Translations under genes and position numbers: made by a program
In this document: positions 10,807-47,858 of the stretch, one piece after another
Layout of the letters: each line of letters begins with the position of its first letter
Position numbering within the stretch: position 1 is the first letter of the stretch
Notes under the pieces: model-generated
Seen by the model: only the letters and a program-made list of their open reading frames with translations
Databases searched by the model: none
Told to the model about the DNA's origin: nothing
Origin: a virus
Lineage: Duplodnaviria > Caudoviricetes
Reading direction: 5' to 3' (one strand)
Length of the DNA stretch: 64,000 nucleotides
IMG/VR virus record: IMGVR_UViG_3300032245_001567
Span: 2,140-66,139 of that record

Positions 10807-10992
10807 ATGACTATAGAAGAAAGAGCCGACAAATGGGCTAAAGAAGTGGGCTTAGAAAAAGCCATTGCAGATTTAAACAATGAAATCTTTGTAAAGGAGA
10901 ATTCATTCGGTAAAGTTGGTTATACCGCAGATGATTTGCGGTATGTCAAAGAGCGAAAAGCAATGGTGAAGTACCTATCCGAGAAAAAATGA
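10807..10992 (+). CDS. hypothetical protein
   Basis: Coupled small ORF. Confidence 0.6.
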   Translation: MTIEERADKWAKEVGLEKAIADLNNEIFVKENSFGKVGYTADDLRYVKERKAMVKYLSEKK

Positions 10993-11987
10993 GACGCACG
11001 ACCAATAACTCCCCCATTACGCAACAACAATCTCAATTTCTTATAACTCAAATTACTTCCATGATGGAAGAATATGAGAAGAAAGTTTTGGGCGAATTGC
11101 TAAAGCAACACAAGATGTCCCCTGCTCAATTTGTGCAGATTGTCTTGAGTGAAGTAAAACGAAATCCAATGATGCTTGAAGCGTTCAAAAAAGAGCCTTC
11201 ATCGTTATTCGCCTCAATCATTTATTGTGCTCAATTAGGGCTTTCCCCTTCGGCTATAGCGGGAGAATTTTATTTCCTTCCGTTCAAGGGAATAGTAGTG
11301 AAGCCAATTATCGGATATAAGGGCTTGGTTTCGCTTATGACAAGGAACAATGCCGTGATGCATATTTCCGCAGAAACAGTGCATGGTGCGGACGTATTTG
11401 AATACGAATTAGGTCTTGAGCCAAAATTGATTCATAAGCCCGTAGAATCGATAAGAACATCAAAAAATTTCTTGTACGTTTATGTGGTAGCAAAACTTAA
11501 TAATGGAGAGAAAGTTTTCAAGGTAATGAACCTAAATGAAATCAATTCCATATTGGCTACCATGGATGAGGTTAGTCCTTACTACTTCAACGATGCCAAA
11601 GACCCTATGATGTGGATGATTAAGAAAACTTGCTTAAAGCAGTTGGCTAAACTTCTTCCCAAAGACTATTTCGGGAGTGAAGCAATCTCCCTTGATGATA
11701 AAATGGAGGGCAATGGCTATATCGTATTGAATGATGAAGACAAAATCGAATTCAAAGAGGGCGTGAAATTTACCGCCAAATTACCATCCAAGAAAAACGT
11801 CTACGGGTCTTTAATGGCGGAAGGCAAAAAAGAACATGAAGAAAATGACCAAAAGTTATTAACTTCGCAACCGCATACGGAGGAAATACCAAGTGAAAAC
11901 GAAAGTAATTCAGCCGAGAATGACAAAGATTCCGAAATCACACCGAATGTTCGGTTCGTGAAAAAAAGAAAAAAGGGAGGTATTTAG
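10989..11987 (+). CDS. recT: RecT single-strand annealing protein
   Basis: CAQLGLSP..GEFYFLPF...IIGYKGL, FEYELGLEPKLIHKP, MIKKTCLKQLAKLLP. Confidence 0.92.
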   Translation: MRRTTNNSPITQQQSQFLITQITSMMEEYEKKVLGELLKQHKMSPAQFVQIVLSEVKRNPMMLEAFKKEPSSLFASIIYCAQLGLSPSAIAGEFYFLPFKGIVVKPIIGYKGLVSLMTRNNAVMHISAETVHGADVFEYELGLEPKLIHKPVESIRTSKNFLYVYVVAKLNNGEKVFKVMNLNEINSILATMDEVSPYYFNDAKDPMMWMIKKTCLKQLAKLLPKDYFGSEAISLDDKMEGNGYIVLNDEDKIEFKEGVKFTAKLPSKKNVYGSLMAEGKKEHEENDQKLLTSQPHTEEIPSENESNSAENDKDSEITPNVRFVKKRKKGGI

Positions 11988-12902: not shown

Positions 12903-13222
12903 TATTTAGCCATTAAAACGTCTTTACCTTCCAAATTCCTTGCAACAAACTGATTACCGCTCTTATAAACGCGTAAGCCATAAGTGTTGGCTAACTCATT
13001 GTTAAGTGCATTCAAGTTTTTAGCACTTTCGCGATTTTCTACTGCACTCATAAAAGCATCCAATGCAATCATAGCATTTTCTTTGTCTTTCAATTCTTGC
13101 TTAGGAGCAACATCAGGCTTAGGAATACCTCCTTTGCCTCGTGGTGTAGTAATAAAAACCACCGCGACAACAATGCCGAGTGTTATAAGGGCTTCTTTAA
13201 CTTGCGTATCAAACATCATCAT
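12902..13222 (-). CDS. N-terminal TM virion membrane protein
   Basis: ALITLGIVVAVVFI. Confidence 0.65.
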   Translation of the reverse strand: MMMFDTQVKEALITLGIVVAVVFITTPRGKGGIPKPDVAPKQELKDKENAMIALDAFMSAVENRESAKNLNALNNELANTYGLRVYKSGNQFVARNLEGKDVLMAK

Positions 13223-13779
13223 ATCTTAATATCCTTAGAACCAATTAGTGTGTATGTGAAGGAATTTGGGTAAAATTCGAGAGATTTTTTGACAATTTTC
13301 ATGAATTCCAAGAAATCTTTTTTGCGTTTGAATACTTGGCAACCTTCAGACCAATTATTAACGAAGTTAGAATCTTCACCCGCCATGTGGATATTTATTC
13401 CCTGAGCATCGGTGTAGATTTTACTTTCATCGTATGTTCCATCTTTTAAATTAAAATCGCGGTAAACACGAAGGGGTCTATATTGACAAAGAGCATCGTA
13501 TAAGCCACGATGTTTGCGAACCATAAAGCATGAAGTATATTGCCACTCTACTAAACGAGCACTACCTTCTCCATTATCGGTGGTGATTGCCCATGAGAAG
13601 TGTTTCCATTCTCCATTTTCTTTATAAGAAACGCAAATAGTATCGTCGAAACGATTGGTAACTTTTTTACCCGTAGATGAATTTCTAATCCCAACGATGT
13701 TAAGATTAAAATCACCTTTTTCATACCACTTGTAACCAAGTGATTTTACGGCTTGTTCTACTTGCTCTTTGGTGTACAT
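13219..13779 (-). CDS. putative endolysin, L,D-transpeptidase(YkuD)-like
   Basis: GINIH...NWSEGCQVF His/Ser-x-Gly-Cys motif. Confidence 0.7.
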   Translation of the reverse strand: MYTKEQVEQAVKSLGYKWYEKGDFNLNIVGIRNSSTGKKVTNRFDDTICVSYKENGEWKHFSWAITTDNGEGSARLVEWQYTSCFMVRKHRGLYDALCQYRPLRVYRDFNLKDGTYDESKIYTDAQGINIHMAGEDSNFVNNWSEGCQVFKRKKDFLEFMKIVKKSLEFYPNSFTYTLIGSKDIKI

Positions 13780-15557: not shown

Positions 15558-16598
15558 TTATGATTTTAGTAAAACTTTATAAGGAATTCCATTGATGATT
15601 ACCGACCAACTTCTATCACTTGTAAGAGATTCAACTCTTATTGTTCCTGCATTGTAAGCAGCAGAACCAACAACAAATTGATTTGCTCCCGTAGAAGACG
15701 CGCCTCTACCAATAACAATAGATGCATCGTGTGCGACTACGTCTTGACCGATACCAATCACTGAAGAATGAGAAGAAGTATTTACTTGAGCATTACTTCC
15801 AATTAAAACATTCGACTGACCTGCTACAATAGTATTACCTGCGCTAAAGCCAATTCCCACGTTATTGTTGGATGTGTTATTTTGCAAAGAATATGTACCT
15901 ATCGCTACGTTGTTTTCACCAATAGAATTTGCAAATAATGAAGCAGCACCGATAGCCGTATTGTACGACCCCGTAGTATTATTTTCTGCGGAAGAACCTC
16001 CAACTGAAATATTGTATGTACCCGTGGTATTTAATCTACTTGCATAAGTACCGATAGCCGTATTATTTGAATATACGTTATTTTGCAAGGCTTGATATCC
16101 GATAGCAGTAACTCCCGTAGCGTTGGTTGCAGTTTCGTTTGCAAAACTTCCAATTGCTACGTTTTTAAATCCCGTATTGATAGAAAAACCACTTCTATAT
16201 CCAATCCCTACGTTGTCGTAACCCGTAGTATTAGAATTTAAAGCCAAATTACCTATCGCAGTATTTTCATATCCCGTAGTGTTATTTGTTAATGCTGAAG
16301 CACCAAATGCCGTATTTGTTCCAATCCCCCCCTTACCATAATTCGCAACTTGATTGGAAGCAATTCTCAATGCAGAAAAATTATTTTTATTATCTGAAAC
16401 CGCTTGAAGCGTAGTTGAGATATCGTTTGCAACTTTTAAATTACCACCACTTGAACTCGTAATATAGTCTGATAAATTTTGAACATTGCCATTAATGTCT
16501 TTGATTTTAATTACGCCATCTACGTCATCGACAAAAAGGGCAAGACTATTGCCATCGGGAGATTTTATAGTATTTTTAAGGGATTTGGTTACACTCAT
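15558..16598 (-). CDS. spike/fibre protein 1, beta-helical repeats
   Basis: About 14-aa NTAIGxxALxxNTTG repeats (Hep/Hag-like). Confidence 0.8.
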   Translation of the reverse strand: MSVTKSLKNTIKSPDGNSLALFVDDVDGVIKIKDINGNVQNLSDYITSSSGGNLKVANDISTTLQAVSDNKNNFSALRIASNQVANYGKGGIGTNTAFGASALTNNTTGYENTAIGNLALNSNTTGYDNVGIGYRSGFSINTGFKNVAIGSFANETATNATGVTAIGYQALQNNVYSNNTAIGTYASRLNTTGTYNISVGGSSAENNTTGSYNTAIGAASLFANSIGENNVAIGTYSLQNNTSNNNVGIGFSAGNTIVAGQSNVLIGSNAQVNTSSHSSVIGIGQDVVAHDASIVIGRGASSTGANQFVVGSAAYNAGTIRVESLTSDRSWSVIINGIPYKVLLKS

Positions 16599-17057: not shown

Positions 17058-17561
17058 TTACGGGTAATACTCCTTATACAAATTGTAAAGGTTTTTGCCC
17101 GTGTTGCTAAATTTAATAGGAATTGTTGTAAATCCGAATGGGGTTTTAACTTTCATGTTACCTACGAAATCCAAATCGATATCTTGCTTTTGGATTAATT
17201 GTACTACAATATCTCTCCAATTTTTGAAAATCTTTTCGGGGATTACTTCAATAGTAACGAAAATTTGGGTCTTTCCATCGGGCTTAATTGTATAAGCCTC
17301 TGATTGCTGAATCTTTGACAATAAAGCATTCTGAGAGAAAATACTCAAATCAATATCCTTGATTGTGGCTTCAAATGCACTCTTATTTATAATGGTGAAA
17401 TACAAATTGAATTTCAACGTAGGGCTAACACTTACCAATTGATAAGAATCAACGCTATAGTCCCATTGTTGGGCTAACATTACATTTTTGTAAACGTAAC
17501 GCAACAACGCAGAACCCATCAATACTGAGCCACCGATTAATAGTACTTTTTTCGCGTCCAT
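17058..17561 (-). CDS. LEA_2/WHy-like membrane protein
   Basis: N-terminal TM then beta-sandwich pattern IINKSAFEATIKDI...TIKPDGKTQI. Confidence 0.6.
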   Translation of the reverse strand: MDAKKVLLIGGSVLMGSALLRYVYKNVMLAQQWDYSVDSYQLVSVSPTLKFNLYFTIINKSAFEATIKDIDLSIFSQNALLSKIQQSEAYTIKPDGKTQIFVTIEVIPEKIFKNWRDIVVQLIQKQDIDLDFVGNMKVKTPFGFTTIPIKFSNTGKNLYNLYKEYYP

Positions 17562-18205
17562 TATCTTGATTTAAAATATAAAAATCCACCAATTGCAACA
17601 ACTACCAAACCACCTACGATTAAAGTAGATGATTTAATTTCTTTGCCAAATATTTTAACTCCTTGTCCACTTGAAGATGTTGAATCACTTGCGCTTGAAT
17701 CACCTCCGCTTGATGAAGCATCAGAAGTTGGATATTGAACACTTGGTGGTGCACTTGGAGGAGCACTTGAAGAAAGTGTAGGCTTATTTGAAGCGGTTGC
17801 CGTTGGGGCTTCTAAAGCACTCATAGAACGCTCAAGTTCAGCAATTTCATTATTTTTCAATGCAATTTGCTTATCCAATTCGCGAATAGCAGTTGATGCT
17901 TGTTCGATAGCCTTTTTTGCTTGACGAAGCATTAAGTCACCTTTTTTAAAAGCACCTCTTGCTATTTCCCTATTGGCTCTATCTTTCTTGTCATTTTCAC
18001 TATCAAGTTTAACTTGCTCATCTGCACGTTTCTTTTGTAAAGAACTGATTTCAGATTGTTTAGATTTAATCTTCTTTTGATAAGAAGCAACTTCCTTTTG
18101 ATAGTTATCAATAGAACCATCAGCAGAATAAAATCTATCGCCCCCCATGTAAGCAGGGATAGGCGTAATTTGAATTCCAAGTTGTTTGTTTAATGCTTTT
18201 TTCAT
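17561..18205 (-). CDS. coiled-coil, S-rich linker, C-terminal TM virion protein
   Basis: FYSADG motif, coiled coil, poly-S linker, TM plus KSR. Confidence 0.7.
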   Translation of the reverse strand: MKKALNKQLGIQITPIPAYMGGDRFYSADGSIDNYQKEVASYQKKIKSKQSEISSLQKKRADEQVKLDSENDKKDRANREIARGAFKKGDLMLRQAKKAIEQASTAIRELDKQIALKNNEIAELERSMSALEAPTATASNKPTLSSSAPPSAPPSVQYPTSDASSSGGDSSASDSTSSSGQGVKIFGKEIKSSTLIVGGLVVVAIGGFLYFKSR

Positions 18206-18206
18206 C

Positions 18207-18533
18207 TTATTTTTTCTTTACGAAATGGACAATGGTTGCCACCAATGCTATAGCGGTCAAACCAATTCCAATTGTAAAAATGGTTTTTCTACTAATTTTT
18301 GGAGCACTTTCAGTTCCCTCCCATTCAAAATCAACACCTTTTTGTAAGTTAATTGGTTGATATGTTTTTGCAAACGATGGTTCTAATACAATATTACCAC
18401 TTTTAGTTGAAACAAATGTTCCACCATTATCATCTACTATTAAAGTAGAGCCTTTAGTGATAGTAGTAGCCAATTCCCCCGCAGGTTGTTGTCTGAAAAT
18501 TTGAATATTTTTTAATGCGATTGCTTGTTTCAT
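18207..18533 (-). CDS. C-terminal TM virion protein
   Basis: TM followed by KKK. Confidence 0.7.
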   Translation of the reverse strand: MKQAIALKNIQIFRQQPAGELATTITKGSTLIVDDNGGTFVSTKSGNIVLEPSFAKTYQPINLQKGVDFEWEGTESAPKISRKTIFTIGIGLTAIALVATIVHFVKKK

Positions 18534-18534
18534 A

Positions 18535-19047
18535 TTATTTTTTCTTTATTATGTAAACGATAGTTCCAACTAAAGCCAAAACACCTATACCAATACCAAC
18601 GTAAAGCATGGTTTTTTTGCTTTCACTTGAAGCAGAAGTATTTGAAGCACCACTTGCCGTAGCACTTGAAACTGATTCCTTTAATTGGCTTAAAAATGCG
18701 GTATCTTCAGATTGTTGCTTATTGATTTTGCAATTCAATGTGCGATACTTGTCTTCAAGTTTTTTCTTTTGAGAACTCAAAACTTTTTGATAATCGTTCA
18801 AAACGCGTTTTTCGCCTCTTTTTGTACTTGGATTAGCAAGTTTCACCCCATTATTTGCAATTTCGGCATCAATACTTGCGATAGTATTGTCCAACTCCAT
18901 GCAATCTTCGGAAATAGGATACCATTTATCAACTTGGGTTGCACGAGAATCTCCGCCCGTAGCGTTGCTATACTCGTTTGCAAATGAGATACGTCCATCC
19001 ATACCGAATGACATATCATTGTCTTTATAAAAAGAATCTATTTCCAT
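18535..19047 (-). CDS. C-terminal TM virion protein
   Basis: YSNATG motif; TM LYVGIGIGVLALVGTIVYIIKKK nearly identical to that of 13782..14141. Confidence 0.7.
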   Translation of the reverse strand: MEIDSFYKDNDMSFGMDGRISFANEYSNATGGDSRATQVDKWYPISEDCMELDNTIASIDAEIANNGVKLANPSTKRGEKRVLNDYQKVLSSQKKKLEDKYRTLNCKINKQQSEDTAFLSQLKESVSSATASGASNTSASSESKKTMLYVGIGIGVLALVGTIVYIIKKK

Positions 19048-19049
19048 GA

Positions 19050-19442
19050 TTATTTTAGTGTTTTAATGAAGTAGTCAATTTGTGATTTATCTTTAATTGG
19101 CAATAATTGTTCGCCAAAAATATAAACTATGGCTTTTATACTATTGTCACCAATTAATCCATCAACATCTAAAGGCGCATTTGGGAATTCTTTCTCAGGA
19201 TGATTTACAAAATATAAGTTCATTTTGCTTTGAAGCAATCTTGCTTTATCCCTAAATGCAGAATCCTTCATTGCTTCTGCAATTAAATTCAACCCACCTT
19301 TTTTGTATGGTTTTAAATCCATATTAGGGTCAAGAGGTTCATCTGCACCTCCTTTTCCTCTTTGGTTTTTTATATGCAAAGCCAAACCTGCTATTAATAG
19401 CAAGAGACCTCCTAAAAACATATTTTTATCATTCTTTTTCAT
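19050..19442 (-). CDS. N-terminal TM protein with PG-binding-like motif
   Basis: LDVDGLIGDNSIKAI resembles PG_binding_1 DGxxG. Confidence 0.55.
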   Translation of the reverse strand: MKKNDKNMFLGGLLLLIAGLALHIKNQRGKGGADEPLDPNMDLKPYKKGGLNLIAEAMKDSAFRDKARLLQSKMNLYFVNHPEKEFPNAPLDVDGLIGDNSIKAIVYIFGEQLLPIKDKSQIDYFIKTLK

Positions 19443-19446
19443 ATAC

Positions 19447-19944
19447 TTATAATTTTATTACATCCTCTCTAATATAAAGAGTTTTAGGCTTATTTGCCCA
19501 AACATCTCTTGTAAGAAAATTCCTTTGATTGTCTTGAATTTCTTTATACACGGCATCAGTAATTGTAACACCAAGCCACTTCCATTTTTGTTGAGTGCTT
19601 TTATTGAAAGCACCGCCTTTATCTTCAATAGGAGCAGTAGTAACTAAACCTATTTTAGTTCCACTTTTAGGGATTTCACCATATAAATTATCAATAAAAC
19701 CATCATCTGCAAAAGGTTCAGTACGAAGTTTTGCTGAATCTACTTTTGATATAATAGTTAAACCTTTCGTTGATTTTTCACGAATTTTAACGTCAAGTTT
19801 AGGGTCGGGAATATTTTGAGCACTCGTTGATTCTTGAGAATTATCATCTCCTCCATCATCTTTCTTTTTACCCAAAACGATATACATCGCCAATAAAACT
19901 GCGAATAAAGCACCCGTTTTTATTATTGATTTTTCATTTATCAT
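19447..19944 (-). CDS. N-terminal TM protein, SH3b-like
   Basis: AKLRTEP...KWLGV...YIREDVI. Confidence 0.5.
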   Translation of the reverse strand: MINEKSIIKTGALFAVLLAMYIVLGKKKDDGGDDNSQESTSAQNIPDPKLDVKIREKSTKGLTIISKVDSAKLRTEPFADDGFIDNLYGEIPKSGTKIGLVTTAPIEDKGGAFNKSTQQKWKWLGVTITDAVYKEIQDNQRNFLTRDVWANKPKTLYIREDVIKL

Positions 19945-20114
19945 TTTGGTTCTTTTTTAATCTTTTCAATCAAATCCTTCATTTCATTATCCAACGTAGG
20001 ATTAGTATCACTCACTCCTCCTTTTTTACGGATATTCTTATATAAAGCATTGATAAGGATTGAGCCAACAATGCCAATTGAAACCCATAATACTATTTTC
20101 TTATTTCCTTCCAT
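19941..20114 (-). CDS. 57-aa N-terminal TM protein (not in ORF track)
   Basis: MEGNKKIVLWVSIGIVGSILINALYKNIRKKGG...; ATGA-coupled to the next gene. Confidence 0.75.
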   Translation of the reverse strand: MEGNKKIVLWVSIGIVGSILINALYKNIRKKGGVSDTNPTLDNEMKDLIEKIKKEPK

Positions 20115-20115
20115 G

Positions 20116-20571
20116 TTACCCTAACTTAGATTTATAATATACATACCCACGAAGACCAATGTAACCAATCCCCATGAATAACATTGAATAAAGAGCAACT
20201 TTGATAAATTTTCCGCCCCCTAAAGTATTTCCAATTTCACTTATAGAATTGGCTACGCCATTCACTAAATCAAAACCAGAGCCACTAATATCTAATAACT
20301 GAGGGATAAGAGGTATAGCCACACTTGCGTATGGGTCTAATCCTTCTTTTTTAACATACGCACGAAAATTTGTATTAAAAGTTCGGCAATCCCAATGAGA
20401 TGCGAACTCAGTTCCTTGAGCGTATGCATAATTCCAAATCAATTTAGCGCGTTCTTCGCCAAAATGATTCTTCAATTGTTTATGCCAAGTTACCCAATCA
20501 TCACAATTCCAAGCGGTATCTTTCCCCCACTTGTCGTAATCGGGCACTATGTTCCATGTTGTTACTGCCAT
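20116..20571 (-). CDS. Trp-rich protein with C-terminal TM
   Basis: WNCDDWVTWH; TM at end. Confidence 0.7.
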   Translation of the reverse strand: MAVTTWNIVPDYDKWGKDTAWNCDDWVTWHKQLKNHFGEERAKLIWNYAYAQGTEFASHWDCRTFNTNFRAYVKKEGLDPYASVAIPLIPQLLDISGSGFDLVNGVANSISEIGNTLGGGKFIKVALYSMLFMGIGYIGLRGYVYYKSKLG

Positions 20572-20575
20572 TTCT

Positions 20576-21358
20576 TTACTGAATTATCATGTTCATACTT
20601 TCAAAGTCGTTGATGAATTTGTTAATTACATCGTAACGCTCTTTGTTTTGTTGACTTGGTACACCTTTAAAGGTTTCCAAGAATGCTTGATAGGCTTCGA
20701 TACGAGGATATCCTAAACCCAAATAGATTAACAATCCATTCAAGTCTGCTTCGATTTCGTTGTCCATTTGTTCATTCAAATAGAAATGCGAAAACTCGTG
20801 CAAAAGGATAGCCAATCGCATGGGTACAGTCATTTCTTTGAATGCTTTTTTGCTCACTTGAATCACACCCGTTCTACGAGAAATTCTTGCGGGGGTGTTC
20901 ATCTCCTGCTTGTTCTTATTTAAAATAGTAGGCAATAGTTGAATATAGTATTCTCTATCGCTACTTGTATAAATTTGATTAGGCTCAAGTTCGTCCAAGT
21001 TGAATGAAAATCTTTGAGCAAAATCCACAAAACTACGCACCTTCGCGTCACGGATATCATTGATATCAATTCTACGCTCTAATGGCAATTTCTCAACGGA
21101 TAAAAACTCGAAGTTTTCCTTTTCGCCTTTTTTTACAATTCCTTTATCGGGAGTTACTTCTACAATAGCAACATCAGGGGTCAATGGCATCCTTACAAAT
21201 AAAGATTCCTCCCCTTTGATGGTCTTATAGCGATTGGTAAAAACTCGATTAGGGTTTGATGCATCGTAAACCTTCAAACGCAACTTTTGAGGCGTATCGG
21301 TTTTCACCTTCACCTTCAAGTTAAGTTCCTTAAAATTGGTAGTTACTTTGTACTTCAT
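20576..21358 (-). CDS. zincin metalloprotease (candidate maturation protease)
   Basis: ILLHEFSH (HExxH) and EIEAD third-ligand motif; located inside the structural operon. Confidence 0.75.
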   Translation of the reverse strand: MKYKVTTNFKELNLKVKVKTDTPQKLRLKVYDASNPNRVFTNRYKTIKGEESLFVRMPLTPDVAIVEVTPDKGIVKKGEKENFEFLSVEKLPLERRIDINDIRDAKVRSFVDFAQRFSFNLDELEPNQIYTSSDREYYIQLLPTILNKNKQEMNTPARISRRTGVIQVSKKAFKEMTVPMRLAILLHEFSHFYLNEQMDNEIEADLNGLLIYLGLGYPRIEAYQAFLETFKGVPSQQNKERYDVINKFINDFESMNMIIQ

Positions 21359-21573
21359 TATCCAATTGCGTTTTTAGTTTCGTCGGGTGTTTCATTAACT
21401 TTTACATCACCATTCTTTAGTTTGTCTAAAGCACGTTGGATGCTATCGGGTTCGATGTTTTCAGGCTCTAACCCTTTGTTTAATGACGTAGCAGTACTCG
21501 CAAAATAAATTGCTCTTGCTACTACGAAAATGCAACCTCCTATGGCGATTTTAATTAAAAGTTTTTTGTTCAT
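21358..21573 (-). CDS. N-terminal TM protein
   Basis: IAIGGCIFVVARAIYF. Confidence 0.65.
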   Translation of the reverse strand: MNKKLLIKIAIGGCIFVVARAIYFASTATSLNKGLEPENIEPDSIQRALDKLKNGDVKVNETPDETKNAIG

Positions 21574-21839
21574 GCATTTTTTGCTTTAATAAGCCTATAA
21601 CTGAGGTAGACTAAACTTAAAATGCCAATGCCAAACAAAACATTTCGCACCATTACATTTTTACCGCTACCACTTGGTTCTTTGCCCTCATCACCGAGCA
21701 TATTTAACATCTCTTTGTTGGCTTCAACATTCGGGATGTAAATACCCTTGGCTTTTTCTCTTTCAATCCATTCCTTGAAAGGGAGTGTAGTACCGCTTTC
21801 ACGATACAATTGATTCGCTGTTTTTGGTGTGTTGTTCAT
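21570..21839 (-). CDS. C-terminal TM protein
   Basis: MLNMLG motif; TM at end. Confidence 0.65.
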   Translation of the reverse strand: MNNTPKTANQLYRESGTTLPFKEWIEREKAKGIYIPNVEANKEMLNMLGDEGKEPSGSGKNVMVRNVLFGIGILSLVYLSYRLIKAKNA

Positions 21840-21840
21840 A

Positions 21841-22404
21841 TTAATGGAATAAATTATCCAAAGTTAAAGATTTCCCTTTACCACTAAAAGGAATAGTCGA
21901 AGATGGGTTGATGCCGCTACTATCATAACTTGACTTTCCGATTGGACTTGTGGTTTTAGGAATTAAAACAGTACCTCCCGTTGGCAACGTAGAAGTTGGC
22001 GCAGTTGGTAATGTAGAAGTTGGTGCAGTTGAAATTTCAGTTCCCGTATTTACTGAACCCACGGGCAATTGACCAACTTGTAAACCACCACCACTTTGAG
22101 TACCGCTTGAAGTACTCATTGGGATTGGACTTTGAGATTTAATTAAATTTTCCGCTTTCTGAATCGCAGAAACGGAAATTGGAGTTTTAGCCGAAGCCTG
22201 CATAGAAGCAAGGACGGGGGATGTACCTCCGCTACTTACTGAAGCCGAAGATGTTCCAAATGACGGCATTAAACCACCAAAGAAGCCACCGCCTCCGCTT
22301 GAATCTTCGGAAGCACTTGCACCTGCTTTAGGGCAAAAGAAAACATAGTAAACTATGCCAATTACTCCAATAGCACTTGCGATATGATGTTTTTTTAATT
22401 TCAT
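21841..22404 (-). CDS. N-terminal TM, S/T/G/P-rich protein
   Basis: Low-complexity stalk with TAPTSTLP x2. Confidence 0.7.
   Translation of the reverse strand: MKLKKHHIASAIGVIGIVYYVFFCPKAGASASEDSSGGGGFFGGLMPSFGTSSASVSSGGTSPVLASMQASAKTPISVSAIQKAENLIKSQSPIPMSTSSGTQSGGGLQVGQLPVGSVNTGTEISTAPTSTLPTAPTSTLPTGGTVLIPKTTSPIGKSSYDSSGINPSSTIPFSGKGKSLTLDNLFH
21980..22030 (-). repeat. 24-bp tandem duplication (TAPTSTLP x2)
   Basis: gttggYaaYgtagaagttggYgca repeated twice. Confidence 0.8.
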
Positions 22405-22727
22405 CCTAAAGCCCTCCTATTTCTACGATAAAATGGCATCGCAGATACGTCTACCATTTTTCTATTTCTGAAATTTTCGCCATAAGGATTATTCCTTTGA
22501 GCGATGATGTTTTCTTGCTTACCCGCAAAATTTGGGAATGCATTTTGTTCAACCTCCAACATCATGGCGTTGTCTTTGGTGATTTTATTGCAACCGCAAT
22601 CACCGCCAAAGTTTTTATTTTCATCCGCATCATCGGTATCAGACTTCTTGAAAAAATCCGAAGTGATAAATACCCCTACCCCTACAAGGATAACGGCTAT
22701 AGCGATATATTTTTGATTTTTTGTCAT
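22401..22727 (-). CDS. N-terminal TM protein (start revised)
   Basis: MTKNQKYIAIAVILVGVGVFI; KNFGG and FPNFAG motifs. Confidence 0.65.
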   Translation of the reverse strand: MTKNQKYIAIAVILVGVGVFITSDFFKKSDTDDADENKNFGGDCGCNKITKDNAMMLEVEQNAFPNFAGKQENIIAQRNNPYGENFRNRKMVDVSAMPFYRRNRRALG

Positions 22728-22808
22728 AATATTAGTGTTTTGATTTCCAACATTTGTAACCAAGGTATAAACCTAACGCGCCTAACGCGTAGTGAAGATA
22801 TTTCATTT

Positions 22809-23126
22809 TCATTTGATTCTTAATTTTTTAGCGGGTGATACATTAAAAGGGCGATATTTTTTAATTTTCAACCTTTCTCTATGTTGCCCTACTTCTTGGA
22901 AGGGCACAACATGAATTGATGGATTTCCGTCGATGTATTTGTCACCTTTAATCCCCAAAAAATCCTCATCACCCGTCCATGAAGAAAATCCATGGTCGGT
23001 ATTGGTTTCGATATTTGTCTTAGGCTTATTCATTCTTTTTCTGATTATATCCACAATAATTGGGGAAACAACCGCGACAACTACACCAATGATTATGGCT
23101 TTTGTGGTACGGATATCTAAATTCAT
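22809..23126 (-). CDS. N-terminal TM protein (start revised)
   Basis: AIIIGVVVAVVSPIIV; FSSWTGDEDFLG. Confidence 0.65.
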   Translation of the reverse strand: MNLDIRTTKAIIIGVVVAVVSPIIVDIIRKRMNKPKTNIETNTDHGFSSWTGDEDFLGIKGDKYIDGNPSIHVVPFQEVGQHRERLKIKKYRPFNVSPAKKLRIK

Positions 23127-23127
23127 G

Positions 23128-23529
23128 TTATTTAATAATGCTTGATAGAACAGTATCATTAGAAGCGTTCACTAACTTTTTAGTGTTGTGAGCAACTTTC
23201 TTCATGATTTTTTTGCTTTTTCTCATCAAACCACCACCACTTGCATTAGCGAAATTTGGTTCATCAGTGGCAATGGGAATAGCATTCCCTGCACCATTGA
23301 AGAAATCACCTTCACTACCTACATAGGAGAAAAAATCATCCTTAGCGGTGAAACTTGAGAAAAACTCATCTCTACCCGTGAACATTGAAGTTCTTTCAGG
23401 TTCAGAAGATGGAATTTGTGGGATTTTGCTTGAATTGGATGTTGCGTTTTGTTCAAAAATCTTGGACAAAGCAATAACACCCCCTAAAGCAACTCCGATT
23501 GTTAAAAATATTTTAGTATTCTTTTGCAT
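23128..23529 (-). CDS. N-terminal TM protein with repeated F-x-N/S-x-x-G motifs (start revised)
   Basis: FFSSFTA, FFSYVG, FFNGAG, FANASG; basic tail. Confidence 0.7.
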   Translation of the reverse strand: MQKNTKIFLTIGVALGGVIALSKIFEQNATSNSSKIPQIPSSEPERTSMFTGRDEFFSSFTAKDDFFSYVGSEGDFFNGAGNAIPIATDEPNFANASGGGLMRKSKKIMKKVAHNTKKLVNASNDTVLSSIIK

Positions 23530-23530
23530 A

Positions 23531-23836
23531 CTATGCGAACTTTTTAATGAGTTTGTATGAAACAAAACCAACCGCCAAAATACCGAATACGATAATTGCT
23601 ACGTTAGTTTTAGAAACGATTTTTTGCAAAGAAGTAAATGGAACAAATACCACTTTGATTTCTTGTGCATTCACATCATTGAAAGGATAAAAAATACCCT
23701 CTTCGTTCATGCGAAGATTGTCAACTTTTTCAGTGTCAATAATATCTCCCACTTTAAAAATGGGAGTTCTATCCGTTGAACCTACTTTTGAAGTTTCGGT
23801 ATTGTAAAAGTCTTCTTTAAATTTATATTGTGCCAT
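23531..23836 (-). CDS. C-terminal TM protein (start revised)
   Basis: MAQYKFK...; TM plus KKFA. Confidence 0.65.
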   Translation of the reverse strand: MAQYKFKEDFYNTETSKVGSTDRTPIFKVGDIIDTEKVDNLRMNEEGIFYPFNDVNAQEIKVVFVPFTSLQKIVSKTNVAIIVFGILAVGFVSYKLIKKFA

Positions 23837-24063
23837 TAGTTGTTTTCTTGAAATAAGTAATAATTGATTGTACCACCAACAAGTGTACCGATAAGCCCGT
23901 AAACGTAAAGATTCTTTTTGTAATACCAACCAATCATAAGCCCACCGCATAAACCTGCGAATGAACCTTTGGCAGTCTTACCAATCTTTTTTAAAAACTC
24001 ATCTTTGGGTTCAGAACCCTTGATGTTTCTTACGTTATCTAAAGCATCGGAAAAAACACTCAT
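23836..24063 (-). CDS. two-TM small protein
   Basis: Gly-rich hydrophobic hairpin. Confidence 0.65.
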   Translation of the reverse strand: MSVFSDALDNVRNIKGSEPKDEFLKKIGKTAKGSFAGLCGGLMIGWYYKKNLYVYGLIGTLVGGTINYYLFQENN

Positions 24064-24674
24064 TATCTTGTTGCTTTATAAATTGCAAAACCAATCAAAG
24101 ATACGGCAGCAATTGAAATTACTACAATACCCGTAGTTGTCAAACCGCTTTTAGCACCTTGAGCACCTTGGTCGGTTGGAGCAGGAGTAGTTGAAGTGTC
24201 AACTCTTGCGGTATCAAGAATAGTCGGTTGTAAACTTGAACCCGTCTTTTGATAAGACCAAACACCTAAACCCGTGTTAATGATGTTTTGAGTTGTACTC
24301 GCATCAAATACTTCAGACAACCAAGAACCAAATTTACTTGGAGTTTTGGTTTTTGTAGTGGTATCGGTAGTTTGAACATCGGTTAAAGACAAACTTTTGT
24401 TCGCTGGACCGCCAATATTATGATAACCCGACATATTAGAATGCTCTTTATGGAATTCTTTTGCAACGGGAGTGGCTAACTTAGAAAAATCTTTTCTAAA
24501 CGCTCTACTTCTTGGCAATAAAGCAAGGAATGCTCTATCAATTCTTTTCTTATCATCTGATTCTTTCACATTCATGCCATATTTCTGCATTAATGCTACT
24601 ACTTCAGGCTTTTTTTCGTCGATTGTCTTTGCGCTAACTGCAAAAACACCTTCTTTGGTGATTTTATCTTTCAT
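24063..24674 (-). CDS. C-terminal TM virion protein
   Basis: HSNMSG/YHNIGG, T-rich linker, TM. Confidence 0.7.
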   Translation of the reverse strand: MKDKITKEGVFAVSAKTIDEKKPEVVALMQKYGMNVKESDDKKRIDRAFLALLPRSRAFRKDFSKLATPVAKEFHKEHSNMSGYHNIGGPANKSLSLTDVQTTDTTTKTKTPSKFGSWLSEVFDASTTQNIINTGLGVWSYQKTGSSLQPTILDTARVDTSTTPAPTDQGAQGAKSGLTTTGIVVISIAAVSLIGFAIYKATR

Positions 24675-24675
24675 T

Positions 24676-25038
24676 TTAGTGTTTAAGTATAAGTGCGGTC
24701 AAAATGATAAAAGTTGATGCAATCAGAAACGTATTGGTTAATTGAGTTTCTTTTTGTGCTGCGGTCAATTGACTACCAACGGCATTAAGATAGTGTTCTC
24801 TTTCTTTATCAACTTTTTCAATACTTGTGGTATTGGCGGTATGCCCACAACATTCAAGAATAATTTCTTTGTCGGGGTGAATATCCACGATTGCCCTTAA
24901 AGCGGGTTCTCCCTCTTCTTTAACAAGCAATTTCAAGGCTTGTGGTAAGTCGTTTGTACGAATCTCGTAACCGAAATTCTTTATAACTCTTTTAGAGCCT
25001 TGTGGATTTGCTGAGGCAACTCTTTGATATAAATTCAT
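24676..25038 (-). CDS. C-terminal TM virion protein
   Basis: HPDK motif, YLNAVG, TM. Confidence 0.7.
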   Translation of the reverse strand: MNLYQRVASANPQGSKRVIKNFGYEIRTNDLPQALKLLVKEEGEPALRAIVDIHPDKEIILECCGHTANTTSIEKVDKEREHYLNAVGSQLTAAQKETQLTNTFLIASTFIILTALILKH

Positions 25039-25054
25039 AATGTTTAATGCTTAC

Positions 25055-25095
25055 AAAAAGAAAAGGGTGGGGTAAATCTCCCCACCCCTTTTTCT
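25055..25095 (-). terminator. intrinsic terminator after the candidate MCP
   Basis: GGGTGGGG/CCCCACCC stem flanked by A/T runs. Confidence 0.85.
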
Positions 25096-25114
25096 CTATT
25101 AATCACAAAAGTGA

Positions 25115-25813
25115 TTAACCAATTACTTTTACAGATTGAGCCTTCACGATTCCAGGGCTTCCGAATTCGCGAGAAACTGGGCGACCTGCTAAGCCACGAG
25201 CCAAATTGATATTGTCCGCAGGGTAGAAATACAACTTCACTGTAGAAGAAGCCAATACGTTTGCGATAATCAACTTGGTGTAACCATCAATTCTATAACC
25301 ATACTTCATAGCGATGATGGTTGATTGATACTGATATGGGTCGATTGTAGGAACAAACACCTTTTGAGCGATGTTACCATTCGCGTCTTTAGTGTTAACG
25401 CTGATTGTTTCCAATACTTGGTTAGCAGTAGCAGACTGAATGTAAGTCAAACCTACACTATAAGGGCTGTTCATGAACTGATACAACATCTCTTGGTAGT
25501 TTACGTTTGGAATCGCAGAAGCGATAGTAATGCTACCGATGGTCAAAGAACCATTAGAGAAACCAGCGTTGTTGATGTATTGGTAAGAACCTAATACGTC
25601 AAAGTTTGATACGTTGCTACCAGTGTTAGTGATAGTAATGATATAAGGCTGAGATGTTGGAGCAGATGGAGCACCCATTCCTGCACCGCCTTCAGCGTTG
25701 AAAAAATCTTCACCTGCGGTGAAAGACAAATCGTCATCGAAAAAGCCATCGGCATTTGCGAAAGACTCGTGAGCACGATTTTGAGCATCGCTCAAATAAT
25801 TCTTGATATTCAT
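25115..25813 (-). CDS. candidate major capsid protein (single jelly-roll-sized)
   Basis: Beta-rich, no TM, C-ending codon bias, own promoter and terminator, next to the packaging ATPase; acidic N-terminal propeptide-like leader. Confidence 0.65.
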   Translation of the reverse strand: MNIKNYLSDAQNRAHESFANADGFFDDDLSFTAGEDFFNAEGGAGMGAPSAPTSQPYIITITNTGSNVSNFDVLGSYQYINNAGFSNGSLTIGSITIASAIPNVNYQEMLYQFMNSPYSVGLTYIQSATANQVLETISVNTKDANGNIAQKVFVPTIDPYQYQSTIIAMKYGYRIDGYTKLIIANVLASSTVKLYFYPADNINLARGLAGRPVSREFGSPGIVKAQSVKVIG

Positions 25814-26158: not shown

Positions 26159-26968
26159 TTATGTATAAGTTTCGAGCAACTTCTTTTTTACCATTTTTAT
26201 CGCATTTTCTTGCGTGTACATGGGTCTATTCTTTGAATCTTTCATGGTCATATAAGGACGAATTAATTTCCGTTGATTCATAATGATGAATTCTTGAATA
26301 GCATGGTCCATTTTCTTTGGTTCTACTTGCCCCAAAAATTTCATTTCATCCAAATCAATGTATTGATAATATCGCTTATTGCCCGATTGGTATTCGTTGT
26401 TAACGATAATTTCAACCAACTTGAGGAATTCGTATTTGTCCTCAAACTTGTTTTGGTGTCTATCAACGGAGTCTAAGTTTTTATGGAAACGCATCCAATT
26501 AAGGTTTTGCCACAACTTTGTGGTGATACGTCCAATAGATTGGAAGTGCATTACAATATCCAAATCAACGTGTCGATTGGTACAAATCGCTCCTTCGATA
26601 TCTTTGGGCAAAGCATCAGAAACGTAGCGGTTAATATCCTCAATCAACAAAAGCCCCCCTCTATACTGCTCAAGTATTACAAATAAGGTTTCTGCAATCT
26701 TATCAAGAGTCATCCTTTTGCCATCGGGCATAAAAGGTCTTATTCTACGAATTTCAATTAGTGGGTGCACGGAAAAACGCACAATATCTTTAAGGGCGAT
26801 TGGTTTAAATTGGGTGTACTCGTCGTTTACATCCAAAATCAAAACTTTACGTCCTGCTGTACCCTTACTTGGATTTCCCATAGCATAGTGTTGCAACATA
26901 ATATTGGTGGTATAAGATTTACCTACACCTTTTTTACCTACTGCTACTCCTAATTGTGGTTCTCTCAT
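26159..26968 (-). CDS. genome-packaging ATPase, FtsK-HerA (A32/P9-like)
   Basis: Walker A GKKGVGKS, Walker B LLLIED, NRHVDLDIVMHFQS arginine-finger/Q motif. Confidence 0.8.
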   Translation of the reverse strand: MREPQLGVAVGKKGVGKSYTTNIMLQHYAMGNPSKGTAGRKVLILDVNDEYTQFKPIALKDIVRFSVHPLIEIRRIRPFMPDGKRMTLDKIAETLFVILEQYRGGLLLIEDINRYVSDALPKDIEGAICTNRHVDLDIVMHFQSIGRITTKLWQNLNWMRFHKNLDSVDRHQNKFEDKYEFLKLVEIIVNNEYQSGNKRYYQYIDLDEMKFLGQVEPKKMDHAIQEFIIMNQRKLIRPYMTMKDSKNRPMYTQENAIKMVKKKLLETYT

Positions 26969-30220: not shown

Positions 30221-31876
30221 TTATGGGATAAGTGCAGACATCAATATTTTATACTTAGAGCCATTAATGGTAACTAACCAAGTATTTGCTTGAGCCACGG
30301 CTTCAGTAGTTACTGTGCCTACGTTTTTTCCCGCAGTAGAACTACCAACTACAAATTGATTTGAAGCAGTTGCGGTTGCACTATCGCCTAAAATAACAGA
30401 GTTGTTAAAGTTGCCAGTACTAACGTTATAACCTAAAGCAGAGTTATTTTGTCCTTGTCCATTTGCAGAAGCACCAACGATAGCATTAGTAGCAGATGTA
30501 GTACTTGAACTTATTTGATAGCCTATATAAGTGTTTCCTGCTCCTGTTGTTAAAGTGGTAGAGGAAATAGCACCTACAATTGTGTTAGTTGCACCTGTAG
30601 TTATACCAGAACCTGTGCCTGAACCAATTAACGTATTATTAGCAGCACTCGTTTGAGCAAATCCAGTGTTATATCCAATTGCAGTATTTCTACTTCCCGA
30701 ATTACTTGCACCACCAAGAGCGTTATAACCAATAGCCGTAGACTGACCAGTTGCGTTATTATTTGCAAGCAATGCTTGATAGCCAATAGCAGTATTTTGT
30801 GGTGACGTAGTTGCAGCACCTAAAGCGTCTTTACCAATAGCCACAACACCAATTGCAGTAGTAATCGAATCTCCTGCTTGATAACCAATGAAAACATTAT
30901 CTGAACCCGTAGAGACGTTAGTACCTGCTTGATAACCTAATGCAGTATTATTACCTCCAGTTGCTAATCGTAACGCTTGATAACCAAAAGCAGTTATTGC
31001 TCCACCATTACCTGTTAATCCAGCCTCAAATCCAAATGCGGTTAAACCAGTTCCATTTGTTGCGTTTTTACCCGCAAAAGCACCAAAAGCAGTATTATTA
31101 CTTCCACTTGTTATACCATACAATGATTGGTAACCAAATGAAGCGTTATAATCTCCGCTAATATTGGTAAGTAGAGATTGACTACCTACTGAAGTATTAA
31201 ATCTACCATTAATTAAATTTAATAAAGATCGATAACCTACCGAAGTATTATCGTTACTTGTGGCAACTAATAAAGATTGGTATCCAATTCCCGTGTTATT
31301 GTTTCCAGTCGATGCCCTTAGTGCTTGATATCCTAACGCAGTTAAACCTGTTCCAATAATATTTGTTAATGCCGATTCATATCCAACTGCTACGTTAGCA
31401 TCAGCCGTATTATTTTGAAGCGCAGTTCTTCCGATTGCGGTGTTGTTATTACCGATTAAGTTATTTTGAAGTGCTCTTCCCCCCAAGGAAATATTTCCCG
31501 TTCCCGTTGTGATAGAACTTCCTGATAAATATCCAACAGCCGTATTTGCTCCCGCAGTTGCGAGAGTCAATGCTTGATAACCGATAGCAGTGCTTTCAGT
31601 TCCAATTAGATTCGATTTTAATGCTTGATATCCGAATGCAGTTCCCCCCGTTCCCGTTGTATTTGAGGAAAGAGCGTCTGCACCAAAAGCGGTATTACCT
31701 ACTAACTTACCACCTCCACGATTTGTAATAGAAGTTGTTGATATTAAAAGAGGGCTATCATTACCCAAGCCATCAGAAACGGCTTTCAAAGTTGAAGTAA
31801 GATTAGCGTTATCAGAAAGTTTTAATAACGCTTGATATGTATTTGCGGGGGTTGTATTCGTTAAGGTATTTCCCAT
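30221..31876 (-). CDS. spike/fibre protein 2, beta-helical repeats
   Basis: Many NTAxGYQAL repeats; C-terminus NQFVVGS...WLVTINGSKYKIL shared with fibre 1. Confidence 0.82.
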   Translation of the reverse strand: MGNTLTNTTPANTYQALLKLSDNANLTSTLKAVSDGLGNDSPLLISTTSITNRGGGKLVGNTAFGADALSSNTTGTGGTAFGYQALKSNLIGTESTAIGYQALTLATAGANTAVGYLSGSSITTGTGNISLGGRALQNNLIGNNNTAIGRTALQNNTADANVAVGYESALTNIIGTGLTALGYQALRASTGNNNTGIGYQSLLVATSNDNTSVGYRSLLNLINGRFNTSVGSQSLLTNISGDYNASFGYQSLYGITSGSNNTAFGAFAGKNATNGTGLTAFGFEAGLTGNGGAITAFGYQALRLATGGNNTALGYQAGTNVSTGSDNVFIGYQAGDSITTAIGVVAIGKDALGAATTSPQNTAIGYQALLANNNATGQSTAIGYNALGGASNSGSRNTAIGYNTGFAQTSAANNTLIGSGTGSGITTGATNTIVGAISSTTLTTGAGNTYIGYQISSSTTSATNAIVGASANGQGQNNSALGYNVSTGNFNNSVILGDSATATASNQFVVGSSTAGKNVGTVTTEAVAQANTWLVTINGSKYKILMSALIP

Positions 31877-38473: not shown

Positions 38474-38474
38474 A

Positions 38475-39197
38475 TTAATCGTTTCTATGTTTTTTTGATT
38501 GAACTATTACTCCTTTGGAGAATTGACCTGCACCCGCCAATTTCTTCGCTTGTGCAATTTTACCGCCCAACTCAAGGTATGGGAATCCTTTGCCTTGTCT
38601 TACATCGCTCCTATTGGCTCTACTTTCATAATAGGGCTTATTGGTTTTTTTACTTATCCTGCGCCCTGGAGGTAATGCTTTTCTTGGAGCATCTCTTTCA
38701 ACATCAGTCCCTTTTTTGTATTGAGGCATCAACTTCAAGAAACTACTTAGTTTTTGATATTGCTTTTGAGCAGCACTCTGAACTTTTGCTCTTTGAGCAC
38801 GGAAGATTTCTCCCGCTCTCTTTAAAGCATCTCCCCATGGTTCACCTTCTTTACGAATTTCTTTTGCCAATTTGGCTATTTCACCCTTGTTAATTTTGGT
38901 GATTGAAGGTTTACCCTTAGCGGTTTTGGGTTGTTTAACGTGTTTCTGAAGCACCTGCTTCGCTTTCGCTTGAGGAGTTACGGGAGTAGGCTCTTTTTTT
39001 TGAAGAGATTTGAATGCTTCATCATAACCGCTTTGCTTTAATTTGCTTAACACGGCATCAAACTTAGCACCAATAACTTCAAGGGCTTCTTCGTCCGTAA
39101 AATTATCGGTGTCCTCTCTCATCGCGTCGATGATGGAAAGGGCTTTTTCTGGTAATTTCGACCTATCGAGGTCTTCGTATTTCTCTTTGTAAGTCAT
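38475..39197 (-). CDS. basic putative DNA-condensing/core protein
   Basis: K-rich; WGDALKRA; RKALPPGRRISK..YYESRANRSD; LELGG. Confidence 0.6.
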   Translation of the reverse strand: MTYKEKYEDLDRSKLPEKALSIIDAMREDTDNFTDEEALEVIGAKFDAVLSKLKQSGYDEAFKSLQKKEPTPVTPQAKAKQVLQKHVKQPKTAKGKPSITKINKGEIAKLAKEIRKEGEPWGDALKRAGEIFRAQRAKVQSAAQKQYQKLSSFLKLMPQYKKGTDVERDAPRKALPPGRRISKKTNKPYYESRANRSDVRQGKGFPYLELGGKIAQAKKLAGAGQFSKGVIVQSKKHRND

Positions 39198-39207
39198 AAT
39201 TTATGTT

Positions 39208-41963: not shown

Positions 41964-41966
41964 AGA

Positions 41967-44343: not shown

Positions 44344-44372
44344 GATTTAGGTGTAAAAGTACAAAGTTTATT

Positions 44373-46805: not shown

Positions 46806-46816
46806 TTTTTTAAAGT

Positions 46817-47794: not shown

Positions 47795-47829
47795 TGTTCA
47801 ATCTTTGCTCGTTAATCGGTTCTATCAAT

Positions 47830-47851
47830 TAACTTTGTTATGTCAAATATA
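47830..47851. promoter_or_regulatory. overlapping divergent promoters
   Basis: TAACTTTG (+, 47830-47837) and TATATTTG (-, 47844-47851). Confidence 0.6.
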
Positions 47852-47858
47852 GACAATT

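Follow-up and report, generated by a model that had tools for sequence, protein, structure and literature searches.

Tailless phages that contain a membrane are presumed abundant in water but have hardly been cultured, and how their coat, membrane, and membrane proteins come together is, to our knowledge, poorly understood. The locus studied here raises this question through a six-residue motif. It lies in a window of 64,000 nucleotides from the IMG/VR virus record IMGVR_UViG_3300032245_001567 (bases 2140 to 66139 of a single 66,139-bp contig; all coordinates below are window positions), the genome of what is apparently an uncultured, tailless, membrane-containing phage. The minus-strand assembly block of this genome comprises 20 open reading frames (ORFs) from 25813 down to 17058, encoding 2921 amino acids (aa) in total, and 16 of the 20 proteins have one predicted transmembrane segment, N- or C-terminal. 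An initial annotation had proposed that the N-terminal leader of the putative major capsid protein shares a motif, aromatic-x-[NSG]-[AFM]-x-G, with virion membrane proteins of the block, and that the motif is either a common maturation cleavage site or a docking peptide. Is this motif a true signal, and if so, which protein reads it?

The shared motif in capsid leaders and membrane proteins

All of the motif strings listed in the initial annotation were found in minus-strand ORFs (Table 1). The strings are real, but the numbers attached to them mark the ends of the ORFs and not the positions of the motif; we keep these numbers here as names for the proteins. Under the annotation's own pattern, [FYWH]-x-[NSG]-[AFM]-x-G, qualifying sites numbered only 8 and fell in 7 of the 20 block proteins, whereas 6 of the 14 strings (YHNIGG, FFNGAG, FSSWTG, MLNMLG, and the five-residue FSYVG and FGMDG) needed a looser pattern. 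A strict pattern, [FYW]-x-N-[AFM]-x-G, and a loose one were therefore used alongside it. Enrichment of the motif was evident when the 20 block proteins were compared with composition-preserving shuffles: the annotated pattern gave 8 sites versus a shuffle mean of 0.65, the strict pattern 6 versus 0.19, and the loose pattern 13 versus 1.80, and 0 of 5000 shuffles reached the observed count in each case. The strict pattern occurred 6 times in the block and 0 times in the rest of the genome (100 ORFs, 18,313 aa; Fisher p = 6e-6), and the annotated pattern 8 times in the block versus 4 times in the same 18,313 aa (Fisher p = 3e-5), these within-genome tests using a pattern defined after inspection of the data. 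An unbiased Gibbs motif sampler run on the 20 block proteins did not recover the motif and locked on transmembrane segments; after transmembrane masking, it returned a β-strand-like pattern (96.3 versus a shuffle range of 74.8 to 131.6) and again not the motif. Because the pattern was post hoc and the sampler failed in this genome, weight was placed on out-of-sample tests.

The initial annotation had made its proposal depend in part on conservation of the motif in homologues, and such conservation was found. Homologues of the capsid protein numbered 1723 at an E value of ≤0.001, with 576 representatives at 50% identity. Among 96 sequences (95 representatives at ≤50% identity plus the query), the leaders, 5101 residues in all, contained 72 sites of the annotated pattern, spread over 54 of the 96 sequences. 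Shuffled leaders contained a mean of 4.0 and a maximum of 10 sites, and the capsid body of the same 96 sequences (17,465 residues) contained only 8. In a 107-row alignment reaching down to 26% identity with the query, the columns of the first motif copy held F/Y in 82 rows, N/S/G in 91, A/F in 75, D/N in 78, and G in 83, and those of the second copy held A in 90 rows and G in 81; Asn was replaced by S or G in 42 of the 107 rows. The leaders of capsid homologues vary widely in length and sequence and carry from 1 to >5 motif copies each. At one distant locus (L099), the capsid protein is approximately 30% identical and its leader is non-acidic, yet this leader contains FSNSAG, YRNSMG, and WSNAGG, and the locus also encodes motif-bearing membrane proteins and the zincin described below.

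AlphaFold2 modeled the putative capsid protein (107-row alignment) with a mean predicted local distance difference test (pLDDT) of 84.5, an N-terminal helix at residues 3 to 16, and a β-sandwich at residues 57 to 216, with a single jelly-roll core from about residue 55. The leader was disordered (pLDDT of <50 at residues 19 to 35 and 38 to 40), with both motif copies in such stretches, and was left undocked from its own jelly-roll. The start of the mature capsid protein near residue 43 that the initial annotation had predicted is compatible with this model, as the core begins at approximately residue 55. Jelly-roll matches were weak, with a Foldseek E value of 8e-4 to the small subunit of cowpea mosaic virus and Z scores of ≤6.5 in the fold search (grapevine fanleaf virus, 6.5; PR772 P31, 6.0; FLiP major capsid protein, 5.3; PM2, 5.2). 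Pfam and PHROG family scans, which covered 30 proteins of the genome, gave no match for this protein. On the basis of its fold class, its position beside the ATPase gene, and its abundance, it is likely the capsid protein.

Seemingly leaderless homologues were rejected as proof that the leader is dispensable. The one homologue of this kind that was traced, P0126 (starting MRTSQPYI), looks like a truncated gene call; at its nearest locus (L101), a leader is encoded in frame ahead of an internal Met. The odd N terminus of P0128 is probably a miscall, its alignment with the usual contigs starting at residues 31 to 33 in most rows and at residue 7 in one. Searches for loci that could provide a motif-less contrast gave none in viral or metagenome contigs for P0143, a variant with a basic N terminus, or for P0149 and P0260. 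The sole motif-less locus found, L098, is a 17-kb IMG/VR contig encoding a distant jelly-roll homologue with a basic N terminus and no motif. Large, unrelated proteins of 811, 1661, and 586 aa are encoded beside this homologue, and neither a membrane-protein block nor a zincin gene is present within 10 kb. The jelly-roll fold is apparently used there in a different kind of element, and this locus cannot separate the hypotheses weighed below.

In the membrane proteins, the motif was found at the aligned place in orthologues of the 21570, 24063, 18535, 22401, 22809, 23128, and 17561 proteins, with some losses. Across 34 aligned sequences of the 24676 protein, the motif columns held Y/F in 34, N in 26 or G in 8, A/V/F/M in 34, and G in 31 or A in 3, and these columns sit in a linker that otherwise consists mostly of gaps. 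Among the best 120 wider homologues of this protein, 104 carry [FYW]x[NSG][AFMV]x[GA], and 12 of the other 16 were inspected and have YLNITG, FLNITG, or YLNLSG. Orthologues of the 24063 protein read YSNAxG, YANAGG, YFRASG, or FMEFLG at the aligned place; those of the 18535 protein keep FGMDG, FGFDG, YSNATG, YSYADG, and YLNAYG; and the two of the 23128 protein keep FMNASG, FFNAGG, and FFNMHG. The alignment of the 21570 family contains 31 sequences, of which 20 have F at position 1 and 18 have G at position 6; 10 orthologues read FxNADG, YNNADG, or FQNFDG, and about 6 of the 31 are without the segment.

The motif was then placed in the context of 41 related IMG/VR loci (capsid identity, 62 to 93%; contigs of up to 102 kb), the source of the membrane-protein orthologues, and 18 further loci. 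Across the relatives, the density of sites per 1000 aa was 7.6 in the capsid protein, where sites were present in 33 of 33 proteins, and 1.88 in downstream transmembrane proteins, where they were present in 97 of 419. The corresponding densities were 0.68 in downstream non-transmembrane proteins, 0.74 in upstream transmembrane proteins, and 0.14 in upstream non-transmembrane proteins. Position -2, which lies outside the selection pattern, was D/E in 64 of 132 distinct sites versus a background of 9.8%, giving the refined consensus [ED]-x-[FY]-x-N-[AFM]-x-G. Of the 132 membrane-protein sites, 40 have G or S instead of Asn at position 3, and co-variation of N versus G at this position between the capsid and membrane proteins of the same genome followed no clean pattern. 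The initial description of the motif-bearing proteins as otherwise unrelated was mostly right: all-against-all BLASTP of the 20 block proteins gave only weak local matches, the best of them in transmembrane tails (18207 versus 18535, E = 9e-8) or in motif-bearing stretches. The motif lies in disordered or variable regions, is conserved as an island, and recurs in unrelated proteins, as is characteristic of short linear motifs. Collectively, these sequence comparisons indicate that the motif is a true shared and conserved signal linking the capsid leader and the membrane proteins.

Several further features of these membrane proteins were observed. The ectodomain of the 23128 protein resembles the capsid leader (residues 64 to 105 and 18 to 56, respectively; 43% over 46 aa by BLASTP, E = 0.014), and S-F-T-A-x-[ED]-D-F-F-x-x-x-G is common to both; judging from this resemblance, a leader module may have passed from one of these two proteins to the other. 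The 24676 family has a conserved N-terminal helical domain, in which GEPAL...HPDK..ILE is invariant, and most relatives have a C-G-C-x-S-C cysteine cluster directly before the motif, of which only C-C-G-H is present here. Most C-terminal anchors of the tail-anchored proteins (17561-24674) end in a short, strongly basic tail (KKK, KSR, KATR, KAKNA, KKFA). These tails might face the packaged DNA; with respect to the positive-inside rule, most anchors are basic on both sides.

A candidate metallopeptidase and its modeled contact with the leader

The same block encodes a candidate enzyme, an HExxH zincin, which is its one conserved, soluble, globular protein and has no transmembrane segment. Residues H187, E188, H191, E201, and E203 were invariant in 30 of 30 orthologues. 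The invariance of the HExxH motif implies catalysis on some substrate. The AlphaFold2 model of the zincin (pLDDT of 89) comprises a β-sandwich followed by a metallopeptidase domain. The best structural match of residues 108 to 254 was BepA/YfgC (6sar_A) of family M48, with a Z score of 8.6, a root-mean-square deviation of 3.9, 120 aligned residues, and 15% identity; this Z score is near the best Z of 7 to 8 that is typical for models without clear relatives. Further M48 matches were Ste24 (4il3) and 3c37, each with a Z score of 6.8, and ZMPSTE24 (6bh8), with a Z score of 6.4, and the Foldseek list included the minigluzincins selecase and abylysin. The β-sandwich best matched GOLD and carbohydrate-binding modules (Z of about 8), a generic fold resemblance. 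The zincin encoded in this genome gave no zincin-family match in the Pfam scan, and a search of the zincin profile against PDB sequences returned one chance match only (E = 0.73). We class the candidate enzyme as a zincin nearest to M48 and not as a member of that family.

The zincin accompanies the motif in related genomes. Its family of 2221 proteins, in which no member has a Pfam domain or a name, is as large as the capsid family. The zincin gene was present in 35 of the 41 close loci, 2.5 to 7.4 kb downstream of the capsid gene. The six loci without it extend <2.1 kb downstream of the capsid gene, below the 2.5-kb minimum; hence, all 35 loci with a long enough flank have it. It was also found in 16 of the 18 further loci, which amounts to 16 of 16 motif-bearing loci with flank, the remaining two being one truncated locus and L098.

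The complex of the zincin with capsid leader residues 1 to 56 was then predicted. The complex score was 0.71, compared with 0.01 for the best of 3 controls. Of 80 solved complexes, 58 attain the mark for this score, as do 2 of 110 mismatched pairs, a calibration that is only rough here because our own alignments were used. The runs agreed in ≥52% of contacts, and the partner pLDDT was ≥47. Confident contacts of the leader were at residues 3-4, 6-8, 10-11, 14-19, and 21-23, which cover the N-terminal helix and the first motif copy. Those of the zincin were at residues 28, 43-46, 51-56, and 219-246, a surface between the β-sandwich and the last helices. The initial annotation had suggested modeling the motif peptide with the protease: binding of the leader was supported by the prediction, whereas the motif was not placed in the catalytic cleft. 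The model thus supports a physical link between the capsid leader and the zincin.

Cleavage, docking, and other readings of the motif

We tentatively favor the interpretation that the motif is a recognition signal, and probably a cleavage signal, for a virion maturation metalloprotease. The putative capsid protein and many single-pass virion membrane proteins would carry the motif as a short linear signal within disordered stretches. Through an exosite between its β-sandwich and its C-terminal helices, the zincin would be recruited by the amphipathic helix at the N terminus of the leader and so be loaded into particles as they assemble. Either during assembly or afterward, it would recognize, and most likely cut at, the motif copies; removal of the leader would leave a mature capsid N terminus between residues 43 and 55, and the membrane proteins would be trimmed. 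The cleavage-site idea of the initial annotation has in this way gained a candidate enzyme in the same block and model support for its binding to the leader, whereas we infer that the motif itself is read by the zincin and that reading means cutting.

Several observations weigh against cleavage at the motif by the zincin. Catalytic residues 187 to 191 are absent from the confident contacts of the complex model, which places the leader on an exosite and not in the cleft. Members of the zincin family fall below every Pfam threshold, the best matches being SprT-like in 7 of 30 members (E = 0.013) and M48 (PF01435) in 1 of 30 (E = 0.015). The membrane proteins are without the N-terminal helix of the leader, and a cut at the motif in the tail-anchored proteins would part the conserved soluble domain from its anchor. 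A number of copies per leader that ranges from 1 to >5 fits multivalent binding as well as multiple cutting. Finally, 322 of the 419 downstream membrane proteins of the relatives (approximately three-quarters) have no site, and such counts over relatives are phylogenetically non-independent, so that p-values are indicative only.

Some of the same observations suit a non-proteolytic assembly or targeting signal, which we regard as possible but rather unlikely. The motif would then be a multivalent docking peptide, bound without cutting by a hub, whether the capsid lattice on its underside, the β-sandwich of the zincin, or another conserved virion protein; it would gather coat protein and membrane cargo at an assembly patch or tie the membrane to the capsid. 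The variable copy number resembles that of multivalent linear motifs, the motif lies in disordered linkers at a variable distance from the membrane anchor, and the modeled leader binds an exosite that includes the β-sandwich, whose GOLD and carbohydrate-binding matches are generic resemblances only. However, the only conserved soluble globular protein of the block keeps HExxH in all 30 orthologues, and in the capsid monomer model the leader stays free of the jelly-roll. That a host factor (a membrane protease, chaperone, or insertase) and no viral protein reads the motif is improbable. No observation supports it directly, although the motif is somewhat raised in the upstream transmembrane proteins of the relatives (0.74 versus 0.14 per 1000 aa), and the strict co-occurrence with the viral zincin and the leader-zincin model point instead to a viral reader.

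Enzyme-free chemistry of the Asn, either as self-cleavage at Asn-Ala or as N-glycosylation at N-x-S/T, appears very improbable. Self-cleavage at Asn-Ala is known in the coat proteins of nodaviruses, tetraviruses, and picornaviruses, where it requires a folded capsid environment; here, the motif sites are in disordered stretches. An Asn followed by A, F, or M would suit this chemistry, as would position 5 of the 24676 family, which is mostly S/T (YMNASG in 47 of 120 and FMNASG in 12 of 120), and the presence of a glycosyltransferase gene (48050-49288). Against this, the Asn is not invariant, given its replacement by G or S in the membrane-protein sites and capsid rows counted above and by G in 8 of the 34 orthologues of the 24676 protein, and NADG and NAEG in the capsid copies form no sequon. 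The notion that the motif is a chance or compositional by-product of low-complexity linkers rich in N, A, G, D, and F is barely credible. The leaders are indeed rich in A, N, D, G, and F, the pattern had to be loosened for 6 of the 14 strings, and the Gibbs sampler missed the motif in this genome alone. Composition-preserving shuffles, however, never reached the observed counts in either the block (0 of 5000) or the leaders (maximum of 10 versus 72), ordered columns are kept across orthologues while the flanks vary, and the unselected -2 position is biased. The chance reading is largely refuted.

Under our preferred interpretation of a signal for the zincin, a broader proposal can be formulated, which we consider possible although short of probable: a large and abundant lineage of tailless-type, membrane-containing bacterial viruses (approximately 60 to 100 kb) may have evolved its own zinc-metallopeptidase consensus-site maturation, in which a leader helix loads the enzyme for cleavage at [ED]-x-[FY]-x-N-A-x-G in the coat protein and a dozen membrane proteins. 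If so, a single six-residue code would specify which proteins undergo maturation in the virion, as an analogue of adenovirus and poxvirus maturation built on a different enzyme class. The code and its constant zincin partner predict virion membership, possible cut sites, and a candidate enzyme, all of which can be tested on recombinant proteins, with no need to culture the phage. In addition, virion proteins of thousands of uncultured relatives could be annotated with this motif as a sequence marker. A literature search, with supplementary files excluded, found no description of this virus group, the motif, or the zincin.

Genome setting and comparison with known systems

The genome has a G+C content of approximately 36%, tightly packed genes, and one tRNA-Gln, and looks like a virus genome. 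A HerA/FtsK-type packaging ATPase gene lies upstream of the capsid gene (Table 1). Searches by tblastn of the ATPase and the capsid protein against a phage collection, which may lack near-identical records, gave no match, nor did a search of the ATPase against PDB sequences. Among the 30 proteins scanned, there was no match to portal, terminase, or HK97-type families, and no protease other than the HExxH zincin was detected, including no clan CE cysteine protease.

Table 1. Positions of the motif copies and of the genes discussed in the text
Feature	Coordinates	Strand	Details
FANADG (copy 1)	25745-25762	-	Capsid leader residues 18-23; E at -2
FFNAEG (copy 2)	25688-25705	-	Capsid leader residues 37-42; E at -2
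YLNAVG	24775-24792	-	In 24676 protein
HSNMSG	24426-24443	-	In 24063 protein
YHNIGG	24408-24425	-	In 24063 protein
FFNGAG	23287-23304	-	In 23128 protein
FANASG	23236-23253	-	In 23128 protein
FSSWTG	22971-22988	-	In 22809 protein
FPNFAG	22521-22538	-	In 22401 protein
MLNMLG	21693-21710	-	In 21570 protein
YSNATG	18955-18972	-	In 18535 protein
FYSADG	18116-18133	-	In 17561 protein
Putative major capsid protein, 232 aa	25115-25813	-	AlphaFold2 model, synteny, abundance
HExxH zincin, 260 aa	20576-21358	-	N-terminal β-sandwich 1-94; C-terminal metallopeptidase domain 108-254
Tail-anchored membrane protein, 120 aa	24676-25038	-	YLNAVG at residues 83-88, in linker before C-terminal transmembrane segment 100-118
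Tail-anchored membrane protein, 203 aa	24063-24674	-	HSNMSG and YHNIGG at residues 78-89; transmembrane segment 180-198
N-terminally anchored membrane protein	23128-23571	-	FFNGAG, FANASG, FSYVG
Membrane protein with FSSWTG	22809-23159	-	2 orthologues: FTNWVG, FSSWIG
Membrane protein with FPNFAG	22401-22763	-	2 orthologues: FPNFDG, FPNFAG
Tail-anchored membrane protein, 89 aa	21570-21839	-	MLNMLG at residues 44-49
Tail-anchored membrane protein, motif near N terminus	18535-19047	-	FGMDG and YSNATG
Tail-anchored coiled-coil membrane protein	17561-18205	-	FYSADG at residues 25-30; single orthologue has YANASG at same place
HerA/FtsK-type packaging ATPase	26159-26968	-	Pfam DUF87/HerA, E = 1.8e-5, 25.4 bits versus cut-off of 23.2; upstream of capsid gene
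DUF2958 protein, 603 aa; DUF7192 (sub-threshold); MoxR-type AAA	within 36662-49288	-	Family scan
Polyvalent protein, 810 aa, with ART-PolyVal ADP-ribosyltransferase domain	within 36662-49288	-	Family scan
GT1 glycosyltransferase	48050-49288	-	Family scan
RecT	10989-11987	opposite to the 36662-49288 run	Family scan

Repeat-rich fibre- or spike-like proteins bracket the block at 15558-16598 and 30221-31876, both on the minus strand (PHROG 6002 and 4636; E = 1.6e-25 and 4.8e-48, respectively). These are candidate host-recognition proteins, and the scan of 30 proteins revealed no tail genes. The block ends with a gene (17058-17561, minus strand) that encodes a LEA_2 domain (PF03168, E = 4.2e-9), which is unusual in a phage and was present in 15 of the 41 related loci. 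Downstream of the block, a 186-aa protein (13219-13779, minus strand) matched PHROG 3000 (E = 2.4e-21) and, weakly, an endolysin family, and is a possible lysis enzyme. The minus-strand region from 36662 to 49288 carries large genes in the style of plasmids or polyvalent phage proteins. Among the close relatives of the capsid gene, L042 to L045 comprise short contigs in metagenome-assembled genomes (MAGs) labelled Bathyarchaeia and Planktophila, which look like binning errors, and a 132-kb contig in a Sediminibacterium MAG; this last contig is the sole hint of a host (Bacteroidota).

The system proposed here can be compared with several others. In endocytic adaptors, NPF, DPF/DPW, and FxDxF are multivalent motifs in disordered regions. 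Like these short linear motifs of vesicle coats, the motif described here is a six-residue, aromatic-acidic element in variable copy number, found in disordered regions of coat-associated and membrane cargo proteins; the vesicle-coat motifs, in contrast, are eukaryotic and cellular and share no homology with it, so that the analogy is one of logic only. Like the M48 enzymes (BepA/YfgC, HtpX, Ste24) and the minigluzincins, the zincin has an HExxH helix followed by a Glu-bearing helix. M48 enzymes act on membrane-associated or unfolded substrates. Unlike them, the zincin has no Pfam match above threshold and no transmembrane helices, and it carries an extra N-terminal β-sandwich.

A further comparison is with the prohead proteases found in tailed phages. 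The T4 enzyme, gp21, cuts after L/I-x-E, and that of HK97 acts with the delta domain of the capsid protein. In both, an N-terminal extension of the capsid protein is a scaffold-like leader that recruits the protease and is then cut at several short sites; the parallel here is the helix-exosite contact in the model together with the multiple motif copies. The T4 and HK97 enzymes differ in being serine proteases of the herpesvirus-assemblin type that act on HK97-fold capsids without a membrane.

The maturation proteases of adenoviruses, poxviruses, and African swine fever virus (ASFV) also act at consensus sites: adenain at (M/I/L)-x-G-G|x and (M/I/L)-x-G-x|G in capsid and core precursors, poxvirus I7 at A-G|x, and ASFV pS273R at G-G|x. 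Vaccinia A17 is a membrane protein among such substrates. As in these systems, a short consensus with a hydrophobic residue before a small or Gly core is found in many unrelated virion proteins, membrane proteins included, and the putative protease is encoded in a morphogenetic module, here next to a putative jelly-roll coat protein and an FtsK/HerA-type ATPase. Adenain, I7, and pS273R, however, are Ulp1-like cysteine proteases of eukaryotic viruses, whereas the candidate here is an HExxH protein in a bacterial-type gene organization; cleavage is proven for the former and is a proposal here. The comparison with poxvirus AG-X processing made in the initial annotation consequently holds as an analogy only, with a zinc metallopeptidase in place of a Ulp1-type cysteine protease. 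Passages of one evolutionary account place the maturation protease with Polintons and derive it, in the model given there, from a eukaryotic transposable element (PMC6260650), and in a survey of prokaryotic double jelly-roll viruses, the word "protease" occurs 0 times in the main text (PMC5894146). A virus protease that recognizes consensus sites in virion proteins is a kind of system that is already known; what would be new here is the enzyme class and the host domain.

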